Below are positions 53,221-63,257 of a stretch of DNA of 64,000 nt, in pieces (positions within the stretch are counted from its first letter, which is position 1; the number at the start of each line of letters is the position of its first letter). The stretch comes from a virus. The notes below the pieces were generated by a model that worked only from the letters and a program-made list of their open reading frames with translations, was not told the DNA's origin and searched no databases. The translations under genes and the position numbers were made by a program. Where the stretch lies: the UHGV virus genome UHGV-0390448; one strand, 5' to 3'.

Positions 53221-53292
53221 GCTGCAAAGTGCTGGTGCTTTATGCCTGTGAAGTTTATAGTTGTGTACACATAACGAGTACACGAGGTGTTT

Positions 53293-53514
53293 ATGCAATC
53301 CATTAACTTCCGTACCGCGCGCGGCAACCTTTCTGAAGTGCTCAACAATGTTGAAGCCGGGGAAGAGGTTGAAATCACCCGCAGAGGCCGTGAGCCAGCA
53401 GTAATTGTCAACAAGGCTACTTTTGAAGCCTACAAAAAAGCGGCGCTGGATGCCGAATTTGCATCCCTGTTTGACACTCTGGACTCCACCAACAAGGAAC
53501 TGGTTAACCGATAA
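53293..53514 (+). CDS. phd: Phd antitoxin
   Basis: [39 protein letters not shown]... is essentially the P1 Phd sequence as I recall it. Confidence 0.9.
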
Positions 53515-53894
53515 TGAGGCATATATCACCGGAAGAACTTATTGCGCTTCATGATGCGAATATAAACCGCTACGGCGGCCTGCCGGGAATGTCAGATCCG
53601 GGTAGGGCAGAGGCCATTATCGGGAGAGTTCAGGCCAGAGTTGCCTACGAAGAGATCACCGACCTTTTCGAAGTCTCCGCCACCTACCTGGTGGCTACTG
53701 CGAGAGGGCATATATTCAATGATGCCAATAAGCGTACCGCGCTAAACAGTGCGCTGCTATTTCTACGCCGTAACGGTATACAGGTATATGATTCTCCCGT
53801 GCTGGTGGAACTTGCGGTTGGGGCTGCAACTGGTGAAATCCCCGTATCTTCAGTAGCGGAGAAACTACGTGAACTATATGGTTCCAATATTTGA
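53514..53894 (+). CDS. doc: Doc toxin (Fic-fold kinase)
   Basis: [87 protein letters not shown] matches P1 Doc. Confidence 0.9.
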
Positions 53895-53929
53895 AAAGAA
53901 GCCCGCTCAACCAGGCGGGCTTCCTACTA

Positions 53930-55036
53930 TCACTCAATGATTTTTTCTGCTGTCAGCCAGCTAATTTCTTGCCTGTCTTTCGGCGGTTTTAGCATGTGGG
54001 CGTATTCAGCGACATTCTCCCACGGAATTGTTTTTGCCCACTCAACGATAGCATTGTGATCTGCAGTGAAGAGTGGAATGGTGTGCGATTTCAACCACTC
54101 TAATGTTGTAACGCCATGTTTTTTTGCGTGGTGCTGTGCATGATGCCGGGCTATCACTTGTAATGGCATTGTCCATTCACTACCATCAGGCATCGAAAAG
54201 CGCATTGTTTTCGGCATATCTGATTCAAGAACAGCCTCCCGAATACCCGGGAACTCACCAAGAACCATGCGACGGTAATCATCGCCGATTTTACCACCAT
54301 ACATTTCTGCAATCCCATCAAGATAATCTTGAGTAAGCAGAGGTGATTCTTCTGCGTTCAGCTTGATGGCTGTATAAATACCACATGGATTTTCTTCAGT
54401 TTTTGCACGACCATGATGGGAATCGTAAAAGTGTCCATGTTCCTCCTCTGGAGGAGCGGACATTAAAAGTATACGTGAATCGTCACTCACTAAAGATGCT
54501 CTTAACATCCCGAATAGCCGATAGCTTACAAGAGCCGCGTCCATAACAATGATCAAAAGATGTTCAGCATAATATCCGGCTACATCTTCCTCATAATTTA
54601 GGCGATATGGTTTAATTTCGCAGCCCCAAGATTTTTGGTAACGATGATTGAGGCCATTTTGGTCGATTTGAAAATACTCTCCCAGTAATGGCGCTTTTGT
54701 ATTAGCTTTCTCCCAATACATATTCATGAGTGAGAGAGTTACCATTCCATTACGCTCAAAGTCTGGAGCGACCATGACCGTTTTAGACTCAGGCATCAGG
54801 ATCGTATAAAGGATACAAATGATAGCCAGAGCAGACTTATGTCCTATCCCAGTCGGTGTGGTAACGCTGACTGCTGAACCTTTTTGTTGAATCGCTTCAA
54901 CAATTAATTTTTGCTGGTGGGTTAACTTAACCCCCATCAACTCTTCTGCTGCTAATGCCCAGTCATGGCTATATTTGCTTACCAGCTCTCTCCACTCTGG
55001 TAATTCGGTGATGTTTTTAGGCGTCAGCATCAGCAT
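53930..55036 (-). CDS. Terminase-large-subunit ATPase-domain paralog with degenerate Walker motifs and no nuclease domain
   Basis: 368 aa, collinear with the first ~240 aa of the PacB-like terminase (shared AEHLL.I, MLSQPTRPSGYFYESHH vs LLMSAPPEEEHGHFYDSHH, NPEGVWTAIVLNSEESP vs NPCGIYTAIKLNAEESP), but Walker A reads PTGIGHKS and Walker B IIVMDAA (no DE); C-terminal 130 aa unrelated. Confidence 0.6.
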   Translation of the reverse strand: MLMLTPKNITELPEWRELVSKYSHDWALAAEELMGVKLTHQQKLIVEAIQQKGSAVSVTTPTGIGHKSALAIICILYTILMPESKTVMVAPDFERNGMVTLSLMNMYWEKANTKAPLLGEYFQIDQNGLNHRYQKSWGCEIKPYRLNYEEDVAGYYAEHLLIIVMDAALVSYRLFGMLRASLVSDDSRILLMSAPPEEEHGHFYDSHHGRAKTEENPCGIYTAIKLNAEESPLLTQDYLDGIAEMYGGKIGDDYRRMVLGEFPGIREAVLESDMPKTMRFSMPDGSEWTMPLQVIARHHAQHHAKKHGVTTLEWLKSHTIPLFTADHNAIVEWAKTIPWENVAEYAHMLKPPKDRQEISWLTAEKIIE

Positions 55037-55823
55037 CCTCCGCTACCTCTGCCTCCACATCTGCCGCGACTTCATCGGACTGTTCTTCTTTGGCCTGTTC
55101 TGCAATCGCCGCACGGCATTTCGCCCTGGCTGTAGCGATAGCCTCAACTTTCACGTCATTAGGAATACTTGAGGTGACATACATATCCAGTTCTTCAGCA
55201 CGGAATACTGTTTTGCCCAGGAATTCATCAAGCATCCAGGTTAAGGAAAAGTCGCAGGAAATCAGGTCTACTTCGCCTTCCGCGCCGTTTGGGAAATGGA
55301 TAAATATCTGTTTGCCCAGGCCAAGCACGCGACAAGCAGCCATCATTACTGCAAGTTCCAGGTCTTTGTTTTCACCTGCTACTGGTTGATCCACACCAGT
55401 AATAGTGCCGTTCAAATGGATATTATATGGCTGATATTTAGAGATACGTTCTACACGCCATGTGCCGGTTAAGGTTCCCTGGCGGAAGATTATCGGCGTG
55501 ACCGAAAGCGACAGCTCTCGAATGAGTTGTTGCGCTATGGCTGGGTCATACAGGGGATCTAACGCGATGCATCCATAAGACTGCGCCAGTTCAAACAATT
55601 CTTCCTGTGTGCACTGAATGCCTCTTGCCGTAATAAAACGTCTGACTCCCGTTTTTCCGTCACGCCAGATAGCAATGCCATTCTCACTATCTAACTCTTC
55701 GTCTAAGCCCAGGTATGTAAGGATGGTTCGCTCAATGGTGGCAAAGGGCAGGGACATATCATCGTTTACATCCACCAGCAGGCCGTTACGCAGGCGATAT
55801 TGAATGTTTTTGGTATTTTCCAC
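55017..55823 (-). CDS. Hypothetical protein with strongly acidic C-terminal tail
   Basis: 268 aa ending EEQSDEVAADVEAEVAEDADADA; overlaps the start of the terminase-paralog gene. Confidence 0.45.
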   Translation of the reverse strand: MENTKNIQYRLRNGLLVDVNDDMSLPFATIERTILTYLGLDEELDSENGIAIWRDGKTGVRRFITARGIQCTQEELFELAQSYGCIALDPLYDPAIAQQLIRELSLSVTPIIFRQGTLTGTWRVERISKYQPYNIHLNGTITGVDQPVAGENKDLELAVMMAACRVLGLGKQIFIHFPNGAEGEVDLISCDFSLTWMLDEFLGKTVFRAEELDMYVTSSIPNDVKVEAIATARAKCRAAIAEQAKEEQSDEVAADVEAEVAEDADADA

Positions 55824-55829
55824 GTTAAA

Positions 55830-56492
55830 TCACTCCACAACAAACCAGTCACAGGCCAGCAGGTCGCCAACTGAAGGCACCCACGGAACAACTACACCTT
55901 GTGCATTTTTTAAGGCGAAATAAGCACCATACGGAACGAGGTCGCCGGGGAAATATCCCTTAATGGCTTCCATTCGTGCCGGGTACTGTCCTTCAGGAAC
56001 CAGCCAGCAGAATTGGTTTTCGCCGTTCCACCCGCGTCGAGCAACTTTCTTGCCATCCTTCAGCCACATCAGCGCGTCAGAAAAGTCGGCTGCTTCAAGG
56101 TCGATTTCTTCTTGTAGAGTAGCGATACCGCCAGCAGAAATAGTTACGTCCCTGGCTGTAATGAATGTCACCCCATTGTGACCTTCAATGCTGAGCAATG
56201 TCCCATTTTCGAAGGCGTCGTTAACCCGGCTATAGCATTTTTCAAATGCTTTCTCTGGCACATAGACCAGATAGCCATTTTCAGCAGTGACGAGATATCC
56301 TCCTATTTGCGGGCGGAATTTTTCCAAGAACACACCATCAACACGAAGCGTCATTCCTTTTGGCTCAACGACTTCGATACTGCCAAAAATGGGCGCATAA
56401 TCTTCGCCGACAATAACAATATCTTTGATTTTCGATGCCCGAATGATGCTGTGGCATTTGTATTTGGGGAACACCTGAAAAGTGCTGACCAT
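55830..56492 (-). CDS. Two-domain protein with C-terminal DUF2829 (Tad2-like) domain
   Basis: C-terminal ~85 aa (FSDALMWLKDGKKVARRGWNGENQF...VPYGAYFALKNAQGVVVPWVPSVGDLLACDWFVVE) matches the DUF2829 signature; N-terminal ~130 aa unassigned. Confidence 0.55.
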   Translation of the reverse strand: MVSTFQVFPKYKCHSIIRASKIKDIVIVGEDYAPIFGSIEVVEPKGMTLRVDGVFLEKFRPQIGGYLVTAENGYLVYVPEKAFEKCYSRVNDAFENGTLLSIEGHNGVTFITARDVTISAGGIATLQEEIDLEAADFSDALMWLKDGKKVARRGWNGENQFCWLVPEGQYPARMEAIKGYFPGDLVPYGAYFALKNAQGVVVPWVPSVGDLLACDWFVVE

Positions 56493-56506: not shown

Positions 56507-57001
56507 TTAAAACTTTTCGTACTGAAGCGGTGTACGCTTGATTTCAACGCGGCCTTCCGATGTGCTACCAAAACCACCAGCACCTCGCTCTGTTTCATCG
56601 AGTTCATCAACTTCTACCAGCGATACCGGTTCAACACGCTCAAAAATGCCTTGCATGACCGCCATTCCAGGCTTGAGGCAAACACCTTCACCACCGGGAT
56701 CTGTAATCAGTTTTGCCATGATTTCACCGCGATAATCGGCGTCGATAATTCCTACGCAGTTAGCCAGGCGCGTATGCTTTTTGCAGCCCAATCCGGAACG
56801 AGGATAAAGTTTCAGACACCAACCAGGAGGGATCGCCATAGCGAGGCCGGTATGCACCCACCAGCTTGAGGAAATAGCGCCATTGCTATCGATACCAGGC
56901 GTTATTTCAACAGCAACAAAATCCATCGCCGCCGATCCGGCGGTGGCGTAAACGGGGAGTTTTGCCGCCGGATGAAGGCGTTTCACTTTCACGTTAATCA
57001 T
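56507..57001 (-). CDS. dut: dUTP diphosphatase (dUTPase)
   Basis: 164 aa; LPVYATAGSAAMDF, RSGLG, IDADYRGE and C-terminal GFGSTS motifs collinear with E. coli Dut. Confidence 0.8.
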   Translation of the reverse strand: MINVKVKRLHPAAKLPVYATAGSAAMDFVAVEITPGIDSNGAISSSWWVHTGLAMAIPPGWCLKLYPRSGLGCKKHTRLANCVGIIDADYRGEIMAKLITDPGGEGVCLKPGMAVMQGIFERVEPVSLVEVDELDETERGAGGFGSTSEGRVEIKRTPLQYEKF

Positions 57002-57869: not shown

Positions 57870-57900
57870 ACTGTCTAAAAAGATTGTTAGAAAATTAATT
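57870..57900. promoter_or_regulatory. Tandem operator-like sites between the recombinase gene and the downstream operon
   Basis: actgtctaaaaag + attgttagaaaattaatt; the second is a full match to the TGTTAGAAAAYTAA family. Confidence 0.55.
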
Positions 57901-58928
57901 CAGGAATCCATCAGGCGACTATTTGCACCAACGGATGCCCCGCTACGGCGCAAATATCGCATAAGTGTTTCGGGCTTTTTCCATGTGCCTTCCTGCATGA
58001 TCTCGACCATTGACACCTGTTTCTCAGCCATATCAATTGCCGCACCAACACGCGCACTATGACCTGTCCACGTCCGGTATCTTCCTTTGTTCGGCGTGGC
58101 ATCTCGCTTATTCAGCAATCCCCAGGCATCGCTGAATATTTTCTCCATCGCAGGAGCAGTAAGAGGCGTTGTCGTGATTCTGGCTTTATTACTGCGGTGT
58201 ATTGGCGGGAATAGCACCGCGTCCGGATGTTCACGAAGTCCGGACACCTCCAGCCAGTCGTTTAGCACGGCGGTAGTGCAACGAGAAAGCACCTTATCAA
58301 GTCCGGCGGCGGTCGTGATGGTCTTCGTGTGTGAAATATGCAGCGTTACAGTGTCACCTGTTTGGTCCAGATCTCCGACACGGATGCGCGAGATTTCTGA
58401 CATACGCATCAGGGTATTGTATGCCACGAAGAGAAACGCCCGATTGCGCAGGTCCACCAGCCGCTCGGAACGGGACAGCAATACGTCGAGCAATTTCAGA
58501 TCATCCCACCGCAACGGTATAGCCTGGCCTGTACGCTCGCCTTTTTCCGTTGCCGCTTCGCGCCGGATGCGCCGCATGGCCAGAGATACACTTTTATCGT
58601 CTGACAGCGGCGGTAGGCCGCATTGCGAAAGCAGCATGTTAAGCATGGCATAGTGCTTATCAATGGTGGTCGAAGCCAGATCGGCTTCATGCAACTGGAG
58701 AAGATACTCGCGGGCCATTTCCGGCGTAATCGGGAACCAGGGGCGCTGGCGCGAATTACACCACCGCGCCCAGGAATGAAAGACCAGACGGAGATCACGA
58801 AGTGTATTTGGGGCATAAGCTCCCTGGTCGTTCATGAACTGCATAAAGTTTTTTGCAGCTTCCTGGTATTCGGTGCCAATATCGCGCAGAAAACCGCCAG
58901 AACCGCCGGAGATAACTAGTTCACCCAT
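57900..58928 (-). CDS. Cre-family tyrosine recombinase (Dre-like)
   Basis: 342 aa, collinear with P1 Cre (WFP..PE..R.YLL.L, VSL.MRRIR, IRNLAF..AYNTL.R..EI.RIRV.D, W.GHSARVGAA.DMA, EIMQ.G.W, .Y.R.); about 45-50 percent identity by eye; catalytic R/H/R/W/Y positions conserved. Confidence 0.9.
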   Translation of the reverse strand: MGELVISGGSGGFLRDIGTEYQEAAKNFMQFMNDQGAYAPNTLRDLRLVFHSWARWCNSRQRPWFPITPEMAREYLLQLHEADLASTTIDKHYAMLNMLLSQCGLPPLSDDKSVSLAMRRIRREAATEKGERTGQAIPLRWDDLKLLDVLLSRSERLVDLRNRAFLFVAYNTLMRMSEISRIRVGDLDQTGDTVTLHISHTKTITTAAGLDKVLSRCTTAVLNDWLEVSGLREHPDAVLFPPIHRSNKARITTTPLTAPAMEKIFSDAWGLLNKRDATPNKGRYRTWTGHSARVGAAIDMAEKQVSMVEIMQEGTWKKPETLMRYLRRSGASVGANSRLMDS

Positions 58929-59079
58929 GAAACTATTAAACCTCTATATACAGATGACGCTACGTGAAAAATAGAAAACTGACAGGGTAGTTATAAGTTA
59001 ATTTTCAAAATTCAAGCCTTTGATTCGAGGCATGATTTTTCATCCTTGTCAATACTACCTGTTTACTGGAGATTATAGC

Positions 59080-59113
59080 CTAACTTTAAATAATGCCAAT
59101 TATTTAAAGTTAG
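59080..59113. other. lox-type recombination site (rox-like): 13-bp inverted arms around an 8-bp spacer
   Basis: cTAACTTTAAATA-ATGCCAAT-TATTTAAAGTTAg; arms are perfect inverted repeats and share TAACTT...ATA with loxP arms; the 32-bp core equals the rox sequence as I recall it; 150 bp upstream of the recombinase gene. Confidence 0.85.
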
Positions 59114-60364: not shown

Positions 60365-60386
60365 GCCCCGAATCGCCGGGGCTTTT
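60365..60386 (+). terminator. Terminator between the convergent 59310 ORF and pacB
   Basis: gccccg-aatcgc-cggggc followed by tttt. Confidence 0.6.
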
Positions 60387-61893
60387 AAATGTCAATATCA
60401 GGAATATCCACTTCTGCCAACACCTGATCGCGGAATGTTGCTAGTTCTGCGCCAATGTCTTCATTAGCAGGCACGTAATCCACCAGCATAGTGAAGCAGT
60501 AGGTATCCCATCTGTCCGGCGACTTGATGTTTAACTTCTGCCGCATGTGCTCCTTGCGCATCATCGCCACCTTCCCTTCTTCGTTAAGCATATACGGGAT
60601 TTTTGATGCCTGATCGGCAGTTTTGGGGTCACTATCGATACGCATACGCCCTGATTTAATGGCATCCCCTGCCATAATATTGGCGTAAGCACGCTGATTG
60701 ACAAAGCGTTCTCTGTCTCTTAGCGCAAACATAGGTTTACCCCAACGGATGCGAACGGGATTAGCACCACGGCGGACAAGCTGCGCACACGTATCTGAAC
60801 CAAAGCCATCAGCATCCACAGCAATGGTGATGTTCGGGTATTTATCAGGAGTGCATTCGTTATAGATAAAGTCGGCAAAAGCCAACGGGTCCATAGTGCC
60901 TGGCATCTCCAGTATCTTAAAGTTCACAACACGTCGTTTCTCACGATAACCGGATACTTTGCATATATTGAGCACCGATTTGTCGCGACCATTACCGACG
61001 TCAGCGGTCGCTACCCAGCCCCAATCTTTCTCCAGCAACACTTTACGCCGTGCGGCGCGGTCGCACTCATCACGACCAAGCAAATACCCGTTAATTGCAC
61101 GCGGGAACTGGCCCAGCACCTTAACCATGTACTCCAGCGAATCCCTGCCGCCGTACTCCAGCAATTTCTCACGAATAAAGCTCGGTTCAACGAATGGAGA
61201 TTCTTCAGAGTTAAGGACTATTGCCGTCCAGACTCCTTCCGGATTGCCTTCTGCCTTTGCCCTTGAATGGTGGGATTCATAAAAGTAACCGCTTGGACGC
61301 GTAGGCTGGGAAAGCATGAGCATACGGTTATCTTTCTGCGTTAACGCCCCCGTCATGACGTTAATCGCCTTATCTGATATGCCCGATGCTTCATCAAGGA
61401 TTAGCAGTAAATGCTCCGCGTGCTCCCCCGCCAGTGCCTCTTCGTTACCGAGTCGATAACCTTTACAGAGCACTTCCCATATCCCTTTACGGGAACGCTC
61501 ATAAAACATGGTGTCAGACAGGACAAAATAGGTCTGTAACCAGCCGTGGCGCTTAACAGCATTCGCCCAAAACTGTTTCACGTATTTGAATACGCCTGTT
61601 TTTACCTGGCCTATTTTGTTCGCAACAATAATGACGCGGGCGTCGGGGAACAGGATCATAAAAATTAGTAGCAACATCGCGGTAAGGGACGACTTACCCG
61701 TTCCGTGTCCGGACGTAACGGTCGTCCTGCTCCCCGTCTCCTGCACTGACTGAATGATCTGCTGCTGCTGGTGGGAGGGGAACATCCCAAAAATATCGAC
61801 AACCGCCTGGGTAAAGTTGTATCGATACCTGATAACCATATCGCGCCAACGTGGATCACTGGTGACGCACTTAATCTTACGACCACCAGCCAT
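60385..61893 (-). CDS. pacB: Terminase large subunit (PacB-like)
   Basis: 502 aa; N-terminal ATPase with Walker A-like SGHGTGKSS and Walker B LLLILDEA, C-terminal RNaseH-like nuclease region with conserved acidic residues; start overlaps the upstream stop (TAATG). Confidence 0.8.
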   Translation of the reverse strand: MAGGRKIKCVTSDPRWRDMVIRYRYNFTQAVVDIFGMFPSHQQQQIIQSVQETGSRTTVTSGHGTGKSSLTAMLLLIFMILFPDARVIIVANKIGQVKTGVFKYVKQFWANAVKRHGWLQTYFVLSDTMFYERSRKGIWEVLCKGYRLGNEEALAGEHAEHLLLILDEASGISDKAINVMTGALTQKDNRMLMLSQPTRPSGYFYESHHSRAKAEGNPEGVWTAIVLNSEESPFVEPSFIREKLLEYGGRDSLEYMVKVLGQFPRAINGYLLGRDECDRAARRKVLLEKDWGWVATADVGNGRDKSVLNICKVSGYREKRRVVNFKILEMPGTMDPLAFADFIYNECTPDKYPNITIAVDADGFGSDTCAQLVRRGANPVRIRWGKPMFALRDRERFVNQRAYANIMAGDAIKSGRMRIDSDPKTADQASKIPYMLNEEGKVAMMRKEHMRQKLNIKSPDRWDTYCFTMLVDYVPANEDIGAELATFRDQVLAEVDIPDIDI

Positions 61894-63257
61894 TAGTCAT
61901 CCTCCGGCTGGTCTATCGCAATCTCGTCATCTACAGCATCAAAACCGGTATCCCCCGCGTCATAATCACCGTAGATATCAGCCGTGGCGGAAGGGTCTAT
62001 ATTCAGGTCTTCATCATTGGCCTCAAATTCACCGGCTTTACGTTCTCCGTTCCGGTCGTAATCCCCCATCCCAAGCCTATCAACGATTTTCGCTACTTCA
62101 GCCCGGCGTTGTGCAAGCCATTGTGGGAGTCCAGCTTGTTGCTCGGCAAACTGCTTCGCCTCTTTATCCAGTTGCTCATCATCAACATCGTTAACGTCAG
62201 AAACCGGAGGCTCCAGAAGTGAGATCGCTTTTGCCGCTCGTGCCGCCAGGATAGCCGGGACACTGACGCCCTGCCGCTCGATATATTCAGCAACGCCTAT
62301 ATCGTCCAGCTCCTCGCGCTCACGCATACGTATAGCGGCGGCGATAACTCTGGCGGCGCGTGCGTCAGCGCCAATGCGATACTCAATCTCTTTGCCACGC
62401 TGCTCGGCTTGCAGGCGAGTAATCGCCAGTTTTTCTCTGGCCTCAGCCTCTCTGAATGCCTGCTGGCGCGCGCCCTGCGCAAGTTTTTCATCCCCCTGGC
62501 GTAGCTTCTGCTCGGTCTGGTAGATGGCAGCCAACCTACTGATAAAGTCATTCATGTAGTAGGCCGCATCGCTTATTAGGCCGAGAAGACGCTGCCCTGG
62601 GTGCATTCCCTCTGGCTGTGTATCGCCGAGGGCGTCAATCTCTTCCTGTAGTCGTTCCGCTTCCTGGTCAACGATGGCCTGATACTGAATTGCTCGTTCC
62701 TGCGCCATCTGTATCGCAAGTCGTAAATGTTCAGTCGCGCCGTTCTTCATCATCTCACGGGCGACGTTGGTGGCAGGCAAAGTGGCGCTTTGAGCTGATG
62801 AGTCAGGGATCATTTGCAATGATCCCTTGTTTCGTTGGGCTTTTTCGCTGCTTTTAGGGATCATTTCCCCCATTTCATCACAAAATGATCCCCTTACATC
62901 CTTGTGTATCTTATTGTTATTACTTGGCTTTTCTTTGTGATCCGCATTTTGTTTTTGCGGCATGGCGCGGAATCGTCCACCAGCTAACGATTTGTCAGTT
63001 TTTGTAAATTCTGTGCTTTTATCAGCCTTTTTTTGCTCTTTTTTTGGGCTTGTGGCGCTACTTTTTGCGCGCTGTTTTGTACTTTTCCCGGCAGCCTTAG
63101 CTTTCGCTTTAACCTCGTTTTTTTTCATATTGAGATGCTTTCTGGCGGTGTTAAAGCTGAGGTCATGCTGCTCGCAATATTCTTTTATGGTGATCCCGGT
63201 TTCTTCTCTTAACTCCAGGAACTTAGCTCGATGCGCTTCCCAGTTAATTAACGTCAT
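61893..63257 (-). CDS. pacA: Terminase small subunit-like protein (PacA-like) containing the candidate pac site
   Basis: 454 aa, N-terminal HTH-like region, immediately upstream of and translationally coupled to the large-subunit gene; GATC-heptamer cluster inside the coding sequence. Confidence 0.6.
   Translation of the reverse strand: MTLINWEAHRAKFLELREETGITIKEYCEQHDLSFNTARKHLNMKKNEVKAKAKAAGKSTKQRAKSSATSPKKEQKKADKSTEFTKTDKSLAGGRFRAMPQKQNADHKEKPSNNNKIHKDVRGSFCDEMGEMIPKSSEKAQRNKGSLQMIPDSSAQSATLPATNVAREMMKNGATEHLRLAIQMAQERAIQYQAIVDQEAERLQEEIDALGDTQPEGMHPGQRLLGLISDAAYYMNDFISRLAAIYQTEQKLRQGDEKLAQGARQQAFREAEAREKLAITRLQAEQRGKEIEYRIGADARAARVIAAAIRMREREELDDIGVAEYIERQGVSVPAILAARAAKAISLLEPPVSDVNDVDDEQLDKEAKQFAEQQAGLPQWLAQRRAEVAKIVDRLGMGDYDRNGERKAGEFEANDEDLNIDPSATADIYGDYDAGDTGFDAVDDEIAIDQPEDD
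62805..62946. other. Candidate pac site: five GATC sites in TGATCC(C)/GGGATCA heptamers as inverted pairs
   Basis: agggatcatt-tgc-aatgatccct (62805-62827), tagggatcattt ... aaatgatcccct (62855-62894), tgtgatccgc (62937-62946); analogous to the hexanucleotide/Dam-site architecture of the P1 pac site. Confidence 0.5.

Follow-up and report, generated by a model that had tools for sequence, protein, structure and literature searches.

Few phage proteins are as conserved as the large terminases, which several bacterial immune receptors recognise. In bacteriophage P1, the large-terminase gene pacB is essential and isaA is non-essential (PMC10695390); the latter belongs to isaA-IS1-isaB, a documented variable region of P1-like elements (RD-2, or region 2; PMC6906374, PMC9603915). 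Here we analyse gene B, a minus-strand gene of UHGV virus genome UHGV-0390448 that lies at positions 53930..55036 of a stretch of 64,000 nucleotides (nt), hereafter the window. Its product is a paralog of PacB that has lost the catalytic motifs and the nuclease domain of a terminase and that is nevertheless maintained by selection while evolving unusually fast. We tentatively read it as a mimic of PacB that acts by binding.

Compared with P1-type PacB, the B protein is homologous over its N-terminal ~260 amino acids (aa), belongs to the same phrog_5902 and is predicted to share the TerL ATPase fold. It differs in having neither the catalytic motifs nor the nuclease, in being encoded away from pacA, and in being accessory rather than essential. 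Its likeness to the isaA-IS1-isaB region lies in the partner gene A, which encodes a homolog of IsaA, and in the A-B pair that fills the slot between ssb and hxr in P1 variants, whereas reference P1 carries IS1 and isaB in place of B and the pair in the window occupies another site. In the literature on this region we found no mention of a PacB paralog, and the literature searched describes neither a dead terminase paralog nor a terminase-derived decoy or inhibitor.

Functional precedents come from other systems. Satellite proteins such as Ppi of staphylococcal pathogenicity islands (SaPIs) and Rpp of phage-inducible chromosomal islands (PICIs) bind helper terminase subunits and thereby interfere with packaging as non-catalytic proteins, but they are not terminase paralogs and are satellite-borne, whereas B is borne by the phage-plasmid itself. 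Ksap2 of phage Bas60, a small non-terminase protein weakly resembling the terminase ATPase domain, meets a terminase-sensing receptor, KpAvs2, and activates it (PMC11564622). DSAD1 blocks DSR2 by binding it in competition with the structural protein that acts as its trigger (PMC10286901), and by analogy the same logic of sensor occupation is proposed below for B.

A PacB-like ATPase domain without catalytic motifs

The features of gene B, its partner and the intact terminase are as follows.

53930..55036, minus strand: gene B, predicted dead paralog of PacB (368 aa if read from the first ATG; phrog_5902 at 4e-127)
54248..55036, minus strand: N-domain of B (residues 1-263), TerL/PacB-type ATPase-like, without catalytic motifs; the hypervariable unit
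54833..54862, minus strand: Walker A remnant TTPTGIGHKS (B residues 59-68; TSGHGTGKSS in PacB)
54533..54559, minus strand: Walker B remnant LLIIVMDAA (B residues 160-168; LLLILDEAS in PacB)
53933..54247, minus strand: B tail (residues 264-368, ~105 aa; motif MPDGS-W-VP--VIA...PLF...W over ~95 aa)
55017..55823, minus strand: gene A, P1 IsaA homolog (268 aa; its stop overlaps the gene B start)
60385..61893, minus strand: PacB, intact large terminase (phrog_2, terminase large subunit, 4e-41, residues 38-477; GHGTGKS and LDEAS intact)

The true start of gene B is likely the second ATG, at 55030, which would give a product of 366 aa; GGAGG lies 6 nt 5′ of this codon, and RefSeq calls the same start in a plasmid of 97% identity. 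A sequence-only reading of the window had proposed that B is a paralog of the N-terminal ATPase half of PacB. Pairwise comparison bears this out: residues 7-263 of B align with residues 8-264 of the window's PacB at 34% identity and 58% positives over 258 aa (BLASTP, E = 6e-49), a similarity far above chance. Each N-domain of B compared is 33-39% identical to each PacB compared.

The same reading had quoted a Walker A remnant (PTGIGHKS) and a Walker B remnant without the catalytic Glu (IIVMDAA), and both are found as described in alignments with PacB and nine B homologs. Where a terminase has GK[ST], B has GIGHKS, and where the hhhhDE pattern with its catalytic Glu would be expected, B has IIVMDA against LILDEA in PacB. 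Among the nine homologs, the position of the Walker A lysine is occupied by H, Q, R or E and never by K, while the position of the Walker B Asp is likewise variable, being M, T, A, V or I. The loss of these motifs is thus family-wide and no private lesion of the copy in the window.

Features that B still shares with PacB are its N-terminal helices and lid region, the Q and SxP motifs and the P-loop glycines, and the B alignment contains 31 invariant columns. A weak match of B to phrog_7579, also a terminase large subunit, was observed. When a structure model of B was searched with Foldseek, its best matches in the PDB were the terminase ATPase domains of P74-26 and T4 gp17 (probability 0.99-1.0, from a model that is partly of low confidence). 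Sequence and model together indicate that the predicted N-domain fold is of the TerL ASCE ATPase type.

No nuclease half was found in B by BLASTP, the alignment with PacB ending at residue 263. Searches of Pfam, NCBIfam and PADLOC assigned neither A nor B to a known family, sequence searches of the PDB gave no match for A, B, the B tail or PacB, and the PADLOC-DB defence models (E up to 0.01) did not match the products of A, B and the Tad2-like gene or two further products of the same operon, of 114 aa and 162 aa. Of the properties of a functional TerL enzyme, B therefore appears to retain the homologous ATPase fold only; Walker A, Walker B, the nuclease and a location in the packaging operon are all missing.

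The tail is a separate early-phage domain

The nuclease half of PacB had been described in the sequence-only reading as replaced by an unrelated tail of 130 aa. That the replacement is not a nuclease holds: in a profile comparison (hhalign) of the B tail with PacB residues 265-502 the probability was 0.15%. The tail is shorter than proposed, at ~105 aa, and it is no orphan but belongs to a large family. A MAFFT alignment had hinted at collinear remnants of the nuclease; the idea of a degenerate nuclease remnant was ruled out by the hhalign result and is also contradicted by tail homologs that stand alone or are fused to other proteins.

For the B tail, the match is to phrog_17928, at its C-terminus (E = 1e-14). 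A homolog in the P1-like Cronobacter phage JK004 is the stand-alone gp35 (98 aa), encoded two genes after the DnaB helicase gene, and another forms the C-terminus of ORF36 of Xanthomonas phage CP2, a coiled-coil DUF1351 protein of 511 aa; an alignment of the B tail with these two sequences contains 23 invariant columns. A profile search with the tail retrieved at least 1,280 protein clusters (E up to 1e-3). Of these, the best-scoring 120 are nearly all proteins of ~100 aa, and none is in a Pfam family. In the loci inspected, tail-domain genes follow dnaB in lambdoid prophages and follow yqaJ-recT-uvrD in an Acinetobacter prophage. The homologs examined lie at the following positions of the comparison loci, which are designated by L numbers throughout.

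L004, 5001-5297
L005, 2768-4303
L006-L008, 6001-6315
L026, 5001-5315

The tail is also the best-modelled part of B, with a predicted local distance difference test score (pLDDT) of ~80-85 in the AlphaFold2 (AF2) model. No functional annotation was found for this domain, and the window holds no second copy of it or of gene A. On these grounds the B tail is assigned to a widespread family of ~100-aa early-phage domains.

An old clade of dead PacB paralogs in P1-like elements

An exhaustive HMMER search with the N-domain of B returned 464 relatives. Those of ~500 aa all retain GHGTGKS, VDEAS and LSQPT, and a set of short ones (230-268 aa, with a further protein of 444 aa) have degenerate Walker A and Walker B motifs like those of B. 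Ten dead representatives formed one clade in 92 of 100 neighbour-joining bootstraps, and in 82 of 100 when the Walker columns were left out. B is thus a member of an old, monophyletic clade of dead paralogs, part of phrog_5902. The description of B as a degenerate paralog in the sequence-only reading is accurate as to the lost motifs, but B is no one-off: it belongs to an old clade under purifying selection.

All clade contexts that could be identified are P1-like elements with a C1 repressor and a Cre-like integrase; one of them (L022) contains PacA- and PacB-sized genes. Three contigs of the clade are too short or uninformative to classify, one of which (L018) carries ssb. The gene 5′ of the dead paralog varies: it encodes IsaA in the window, SSB in L018 (1-1197) and a radical-SAM protein in L019 (7027-8795), and in L020 (7336-8792) the gene of a Ref-like RecA-dependent nuclease overlaps a short dead paralog by 4 nt. 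A natural B variant of 266 aa, P0007 (L013 / L017), from within the D6-like lineage, has neither the tail nor the overlap with its IsaA-like neighbour. Because the dead domain is also found alone, at ~250-266 aa, behind varying partners, it is the core functional unit, with IsaA and the tail as optional additions.

We classify the B family, from its sequences, as a putative family of TerL-derived pseudoenzymes. Public records name gene B 'terminase large subunit' or 'hypothetical protein', and the family was probably overlooked partly because of these labels and partly because P1, the reference, has lost the gene to an IS1 insertion.

Purifying selection, fast evolution and exchange of alleles

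We compared the alleles of B between related elements. Loci L009 and L015 are parts of one plasmid (pS143-4), and L011 and L016 of one contig, different flanks having been taken in each case. Between the window and pS143-4, DNA identity is 97-100% at the 3′ end of the Tad2-like gene, drops to 45-70% over A and the B N-domain, and rises again to 92-97% in the B tail. In a comparison of six loci it is the N-domain of B that varies, as the following identities illustrate.

L014 and L016: PacB 100%, PacA 99%, A 98%, B N-domain 76%
L014 and L015: PacB 98%, PacA 94%, A 97%, B N-domain 51%
L009 and L011: A 96%, tail 97%, B N-domain 53%
Window and L014: PacB 92%, PacA 74%, A 74%, B N-domain 99%

Elements whose PacB proteins are 92-100% identical can thus carry B N-domain alleles that are 51-77% identical. 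The opposite is seen between the window and L014, where synonymous divergence (dS) is 0.02 in the B N-domain and above 1.2 in A and PacB, a difference that confirms horizontal exchange of the N-domain.

The ratio of nonsynonymous to synonymous divergence (dN/dS) is 0.29-0.48 for the B N-domain, 0.08-0.17 for A, 0.06-0.15 for the tail and 0.07 or less for PacB, so that the ratio of B is ~4- to >10-fold that of PacB. Open reading frames (ORFs) of B are intact across alleles that are merely 42-51% identical and at two genomic sites. These patterns identify B as a predicted working protein that is under purifying selection and evolves unusually fast. The better-conserved parts of the N-domain are residues 1-80 and 181-263, and residues 141-160 and 201-220 are closest to PacB.

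The B N-domain showed no sign of co-evolving with PacA, PacB, C1 or IsaA of the element that carries it, and it resembles the resident PacB no more than it resembles other PacBs. Its alleles change backbones independently of the tail as well as of PacA, PacB and IsaA. Three N-domain allele classes were seen alongside near-identical PacA and PacB; a single class was seen alongside PacAs that are just 74% identical.

Genomic position and the partner gene A

The gene set of the window identifies it as a predicted P1/D6-type phage-plasmid of Escherichia coli, and the 12 kb around gene B are 97% identical to non-mobilizable E. coli plasmids of ~90 kb. Its plus strand carries humD, phd and doc, and its minus strand the genes of the Cre-like recombinase, dUTPase (dut) and Tad2-like protein as well as lpa, pacA and pacB; a C1-type repressor gene lies between cre and pacB. 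The surroundings of gene B comprise the following features.

59072..59099, minus strand: sigma-70-like promoter TTGGCA-16-TATAAT upstream of the cre-like gene (11/12 matches; a consensus match only)
57900..58928, minus strand: gene of a Cre-like tyrosine recombinase, which opens the putative operon (Pfam Phage_integrase, E = 1e-16)
56507..57001, minus strand: dUTPase gene, in the same operon as B (annotated as such by RefSeq and Pfam at homologous loci)
55830..56492, minus strand: Tad2-like gene (DUF2829), immediately 5′ of A in the same operon (Pfam PF11195, E = 1.6e-22)
53893..53923, minus strand: hairpin and T-run (GAAGCCCGC-loop-GCGGGCTTC-TTTTC) directly after the B stop, predicted operon end
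61893-63257, minus strand: PacA gene, compared between related elements

From the cre-like gene through B, the minus-strand genes are tightly packed or overlapping. The promoter-like site 5′ of the cre-like gene is the sole strong candidate for driving a cre-to-B operon, whose end is likely marked by the hairpin and T-run after B. All D6-like loci examined (L003, L009, L011-L017) keep one gene order: first cre, then two small genes, followed by dut, the Tad2-like gene, A and finally B. B lies ~5 kb from pacA-pacB and outside the lpa-pacA-pacB packaging operon. The consensus of the P1 C1 operator had zero matches in the window, and the P1 late-promoter motif had matches at chance level, none of them near the cassette; in both cases the lineage may use different sites.

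Gene A is 47% identical to P1 IsaA over 262 aa (E = 4e-86) and matches phrog_2326 at 2e-124. Its overlap with the start of gene B suggests that A and B are translationally coupled. A was also considered as a paralog of the small terminase subunit PacA; this was ruled out, as it has zero similarity to PacA.

In the window the A-B pair is situated between the Tad2-like gene and doc. In P1 variants the pair recurs, at ~47% identity, between ssb and hxr; the ssb operon that carries it there is annotated in P1 with a C1-controlled operator. Reference P1 (L010, NC_005856, 1570-4133) has isaA followed by IS1 and an unrelated isaB, and it has no B (compare L001, 5184-7065) because IS1 and isaB fill the slot of B. 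D6 lacks B as well. Homologs of IsaA were found in 457 plasmid records, and a full-length B in 163 of ~789 plasmid records that bear PacB, so that ~80% of the latter are without B.

A possible role as a binding-only mimic

Our favoured reading, held tentatively and as a possibility rather than as the probable answer, is that B is a binding-only mimic of PacB used in a conflict whose likeliest targets are host sensors of terminases. B would go back to a pacB duplication that took place long ago in P1-like phage-plasmids; the Walker A lysine and the Walker B Asp-Glu would then have disappeared from it, along with the entire nuclease domain. With the catalytic motifs and the nuclease lost, B should be unable to power or cut DNA. 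In the lineage of the window it would have gained the early-phage domain of ~105 aa and the coupling to an IsaA homolog. Expressed from the accessory cre-to-B operon and not from the packaging operon, B may compete with the real PacB for a ligand outside its own packaging machine. The ligand we think likeliest is an Avs-type immune sensor of large terminases, which B could occupy or blunt ahead of the appearance of PacB.

A domain of 260 aa without catalytic residues or a fixed effector partner must act by binding. B alleles do not follow the resident PacA and PacB, which speaks against a role adapted to the packaging enzyme of the same element. The accessory status of B, the horizontal exchange of its alleles, its raised dN/dS and its anti-defence neighbour, the Tad2-like gene, suggest a role in conflict, and the location of B outside the packaging operon is also in favour of such a role. 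DSAD1, the precedent for competitive occupation of a sensor, is to our knowledge not a paralog of its trigger, unlike B.

Several points weigh against this reading. In the AF2 model of B the mean pLDDT is 64, and the ATPase core is too poor for surface mapping. The variability of B is highest at residues 81-180, that is, in the former catalytic core. Since Ksap2 activates KpAvs2, a mimic of this type could be a liability for its carrier and not a block. In the structure of Avs3 with a terminase, the sensor reportedly contacts both active sites, neither of which B has. The confinement of the clade to P1-like contexts seems to fit a target in P1-type packaging at least equally well. Finally, many neighbours or fusion partners belong to DNA metabolism (ssb and ref for the dead domain; dnaB, recT and uvrD near the tail).

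A serious alternative, only slightly less likely, is that B is instead a weapon between elements, a dominant-negative mimic that blocks pac cleavage or packaging by a rival or co-resident P1-type element, either by binding the rival PacA or by inserting itself into the rival PacB ring. Wherever its context could be identified, the dead clade is found in P1-like elements, which share the PacA/PacB enzyme; the N-terminal region and the lid, the most PacB-like parts of B, are retained; its alleles are independent of the resident subunits; and PacA, at 69-99% identity between elements, is a variable target. PacB, however, is 92-100% identical among most elements, so that a mimic of its conserved surfaces would poison its own carrier, and B alleles that match or mismatch the resident PacA were not seen. 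The same surfaces could serve a self-regulator that titrates the resident PacA/PacB early and so delays pac cleavage, and the context of B suggests a non-late operon. We nevertheless regard this as unlikely, given the three N-domain classes that occur with near-identical PacA and PacB, the one class that spans PacAs of 74% identity, and the absence of B from P1, D6 and ~80% of PacB-bearing plasmids.

An accessory function in early DNA metabolism, in which the dead fold would act as a DNA- or protein-binding scaffold together with SSB, Ref-type nucleases or helicases, is a serious option as well, somewhat less credible than a weapon between elements. B or its short relatives lie directly 3′ of ssb in P1 variants and in L018, a short relative overlaps the Ref-like RecA-dependent nuclease gene by 4 nt in L020, the stand-alone tail follows dnaB or yqaJ-recT-uvrD and is fused to the DUF1351 protein in CP2, and the C1-controlled operator annotated for the P1 ssb operon marks that operon as early. 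Yet the hypervariability and the horizontal exchange of alleles would be left unexplained, early operons hold anti-defence genes too, which makes the context ambiguous, and both the non-essential isaA of P1 (PMC10695390) and the lack of B in most P1-like elements speak against this option. That B is a functionless relic of the pacB duplication in the course of decay is very improbable. The lost motifs and nuclease and a dN/dS raised relative to its neighbours would agree with decay; against this stand ratios well under 1 (0.29-0.48), intact ORFs across 42-51%-identical alleles at two genomic sites, the 31 invariant columns, the maintained translational coupling and conserved fused domain, and the age and monophyly of the clade.

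If the reading of B as a sensor-blocking mimic is true, it would be the first counter-defence known to us that derives from the trigger itself; if B poisons rival packaging, phage-plasmids would use packaging interference of the satellite type. A dead, rapidly diversifying, phage-borne copy of a terminase motor would add a new type to the viral pseudoenzymes. More generally, P1-like phage-plasmids might keep diversifying such 'pseudo-terminases' as mimics against terminase-fold sensors or rival packaging enzymes, with the variability of the core as the mark of an arms race, a suggestion that we put forward with considerable reserve. B also places IsaA, and a very common but unnamed early-phage domain of ~100 aa, in a context that can be tested.

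Further observations on the locus

The Tad2-like gene is a mosaic in its own right. DNA identity to pS143-4 is 97-100% over the 3′ part, but the N-terminal ~135 codons either cannot be aligned with that plasmid or are missing from it (146 aa in pS143-4 versus 220 aa); between elements, identity of the protein ranges from 56% to 90%. A second Tad2-like gene, encoding 191 aa, lies two genes upstream of lpa in L016 (278-853) and L017 (396-971), and its equivalent in L003 bears the RefSeq name 'MW1434 family type I TA system toxin'. The equivalent in the window would fall at or past the 3′ end.

At the other boundary of the cassette, a phd-doc addiction module (window 53287-53894, plus strand) adjoins the 3′ end of B. 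The window, L011 and L014 have it; L009, L012 and L013 lack it, and in these three other genes follow B (in L009, humD directly). This amounts to an insertion/deletion polymorphism at the cassette boundary.

Between related elements PacA is more divergent than PacB (69-99% versus 78-100% identity). Gene calls of pacA vary as well, with ~324-326 codons in L003 and L016 compared with 454.

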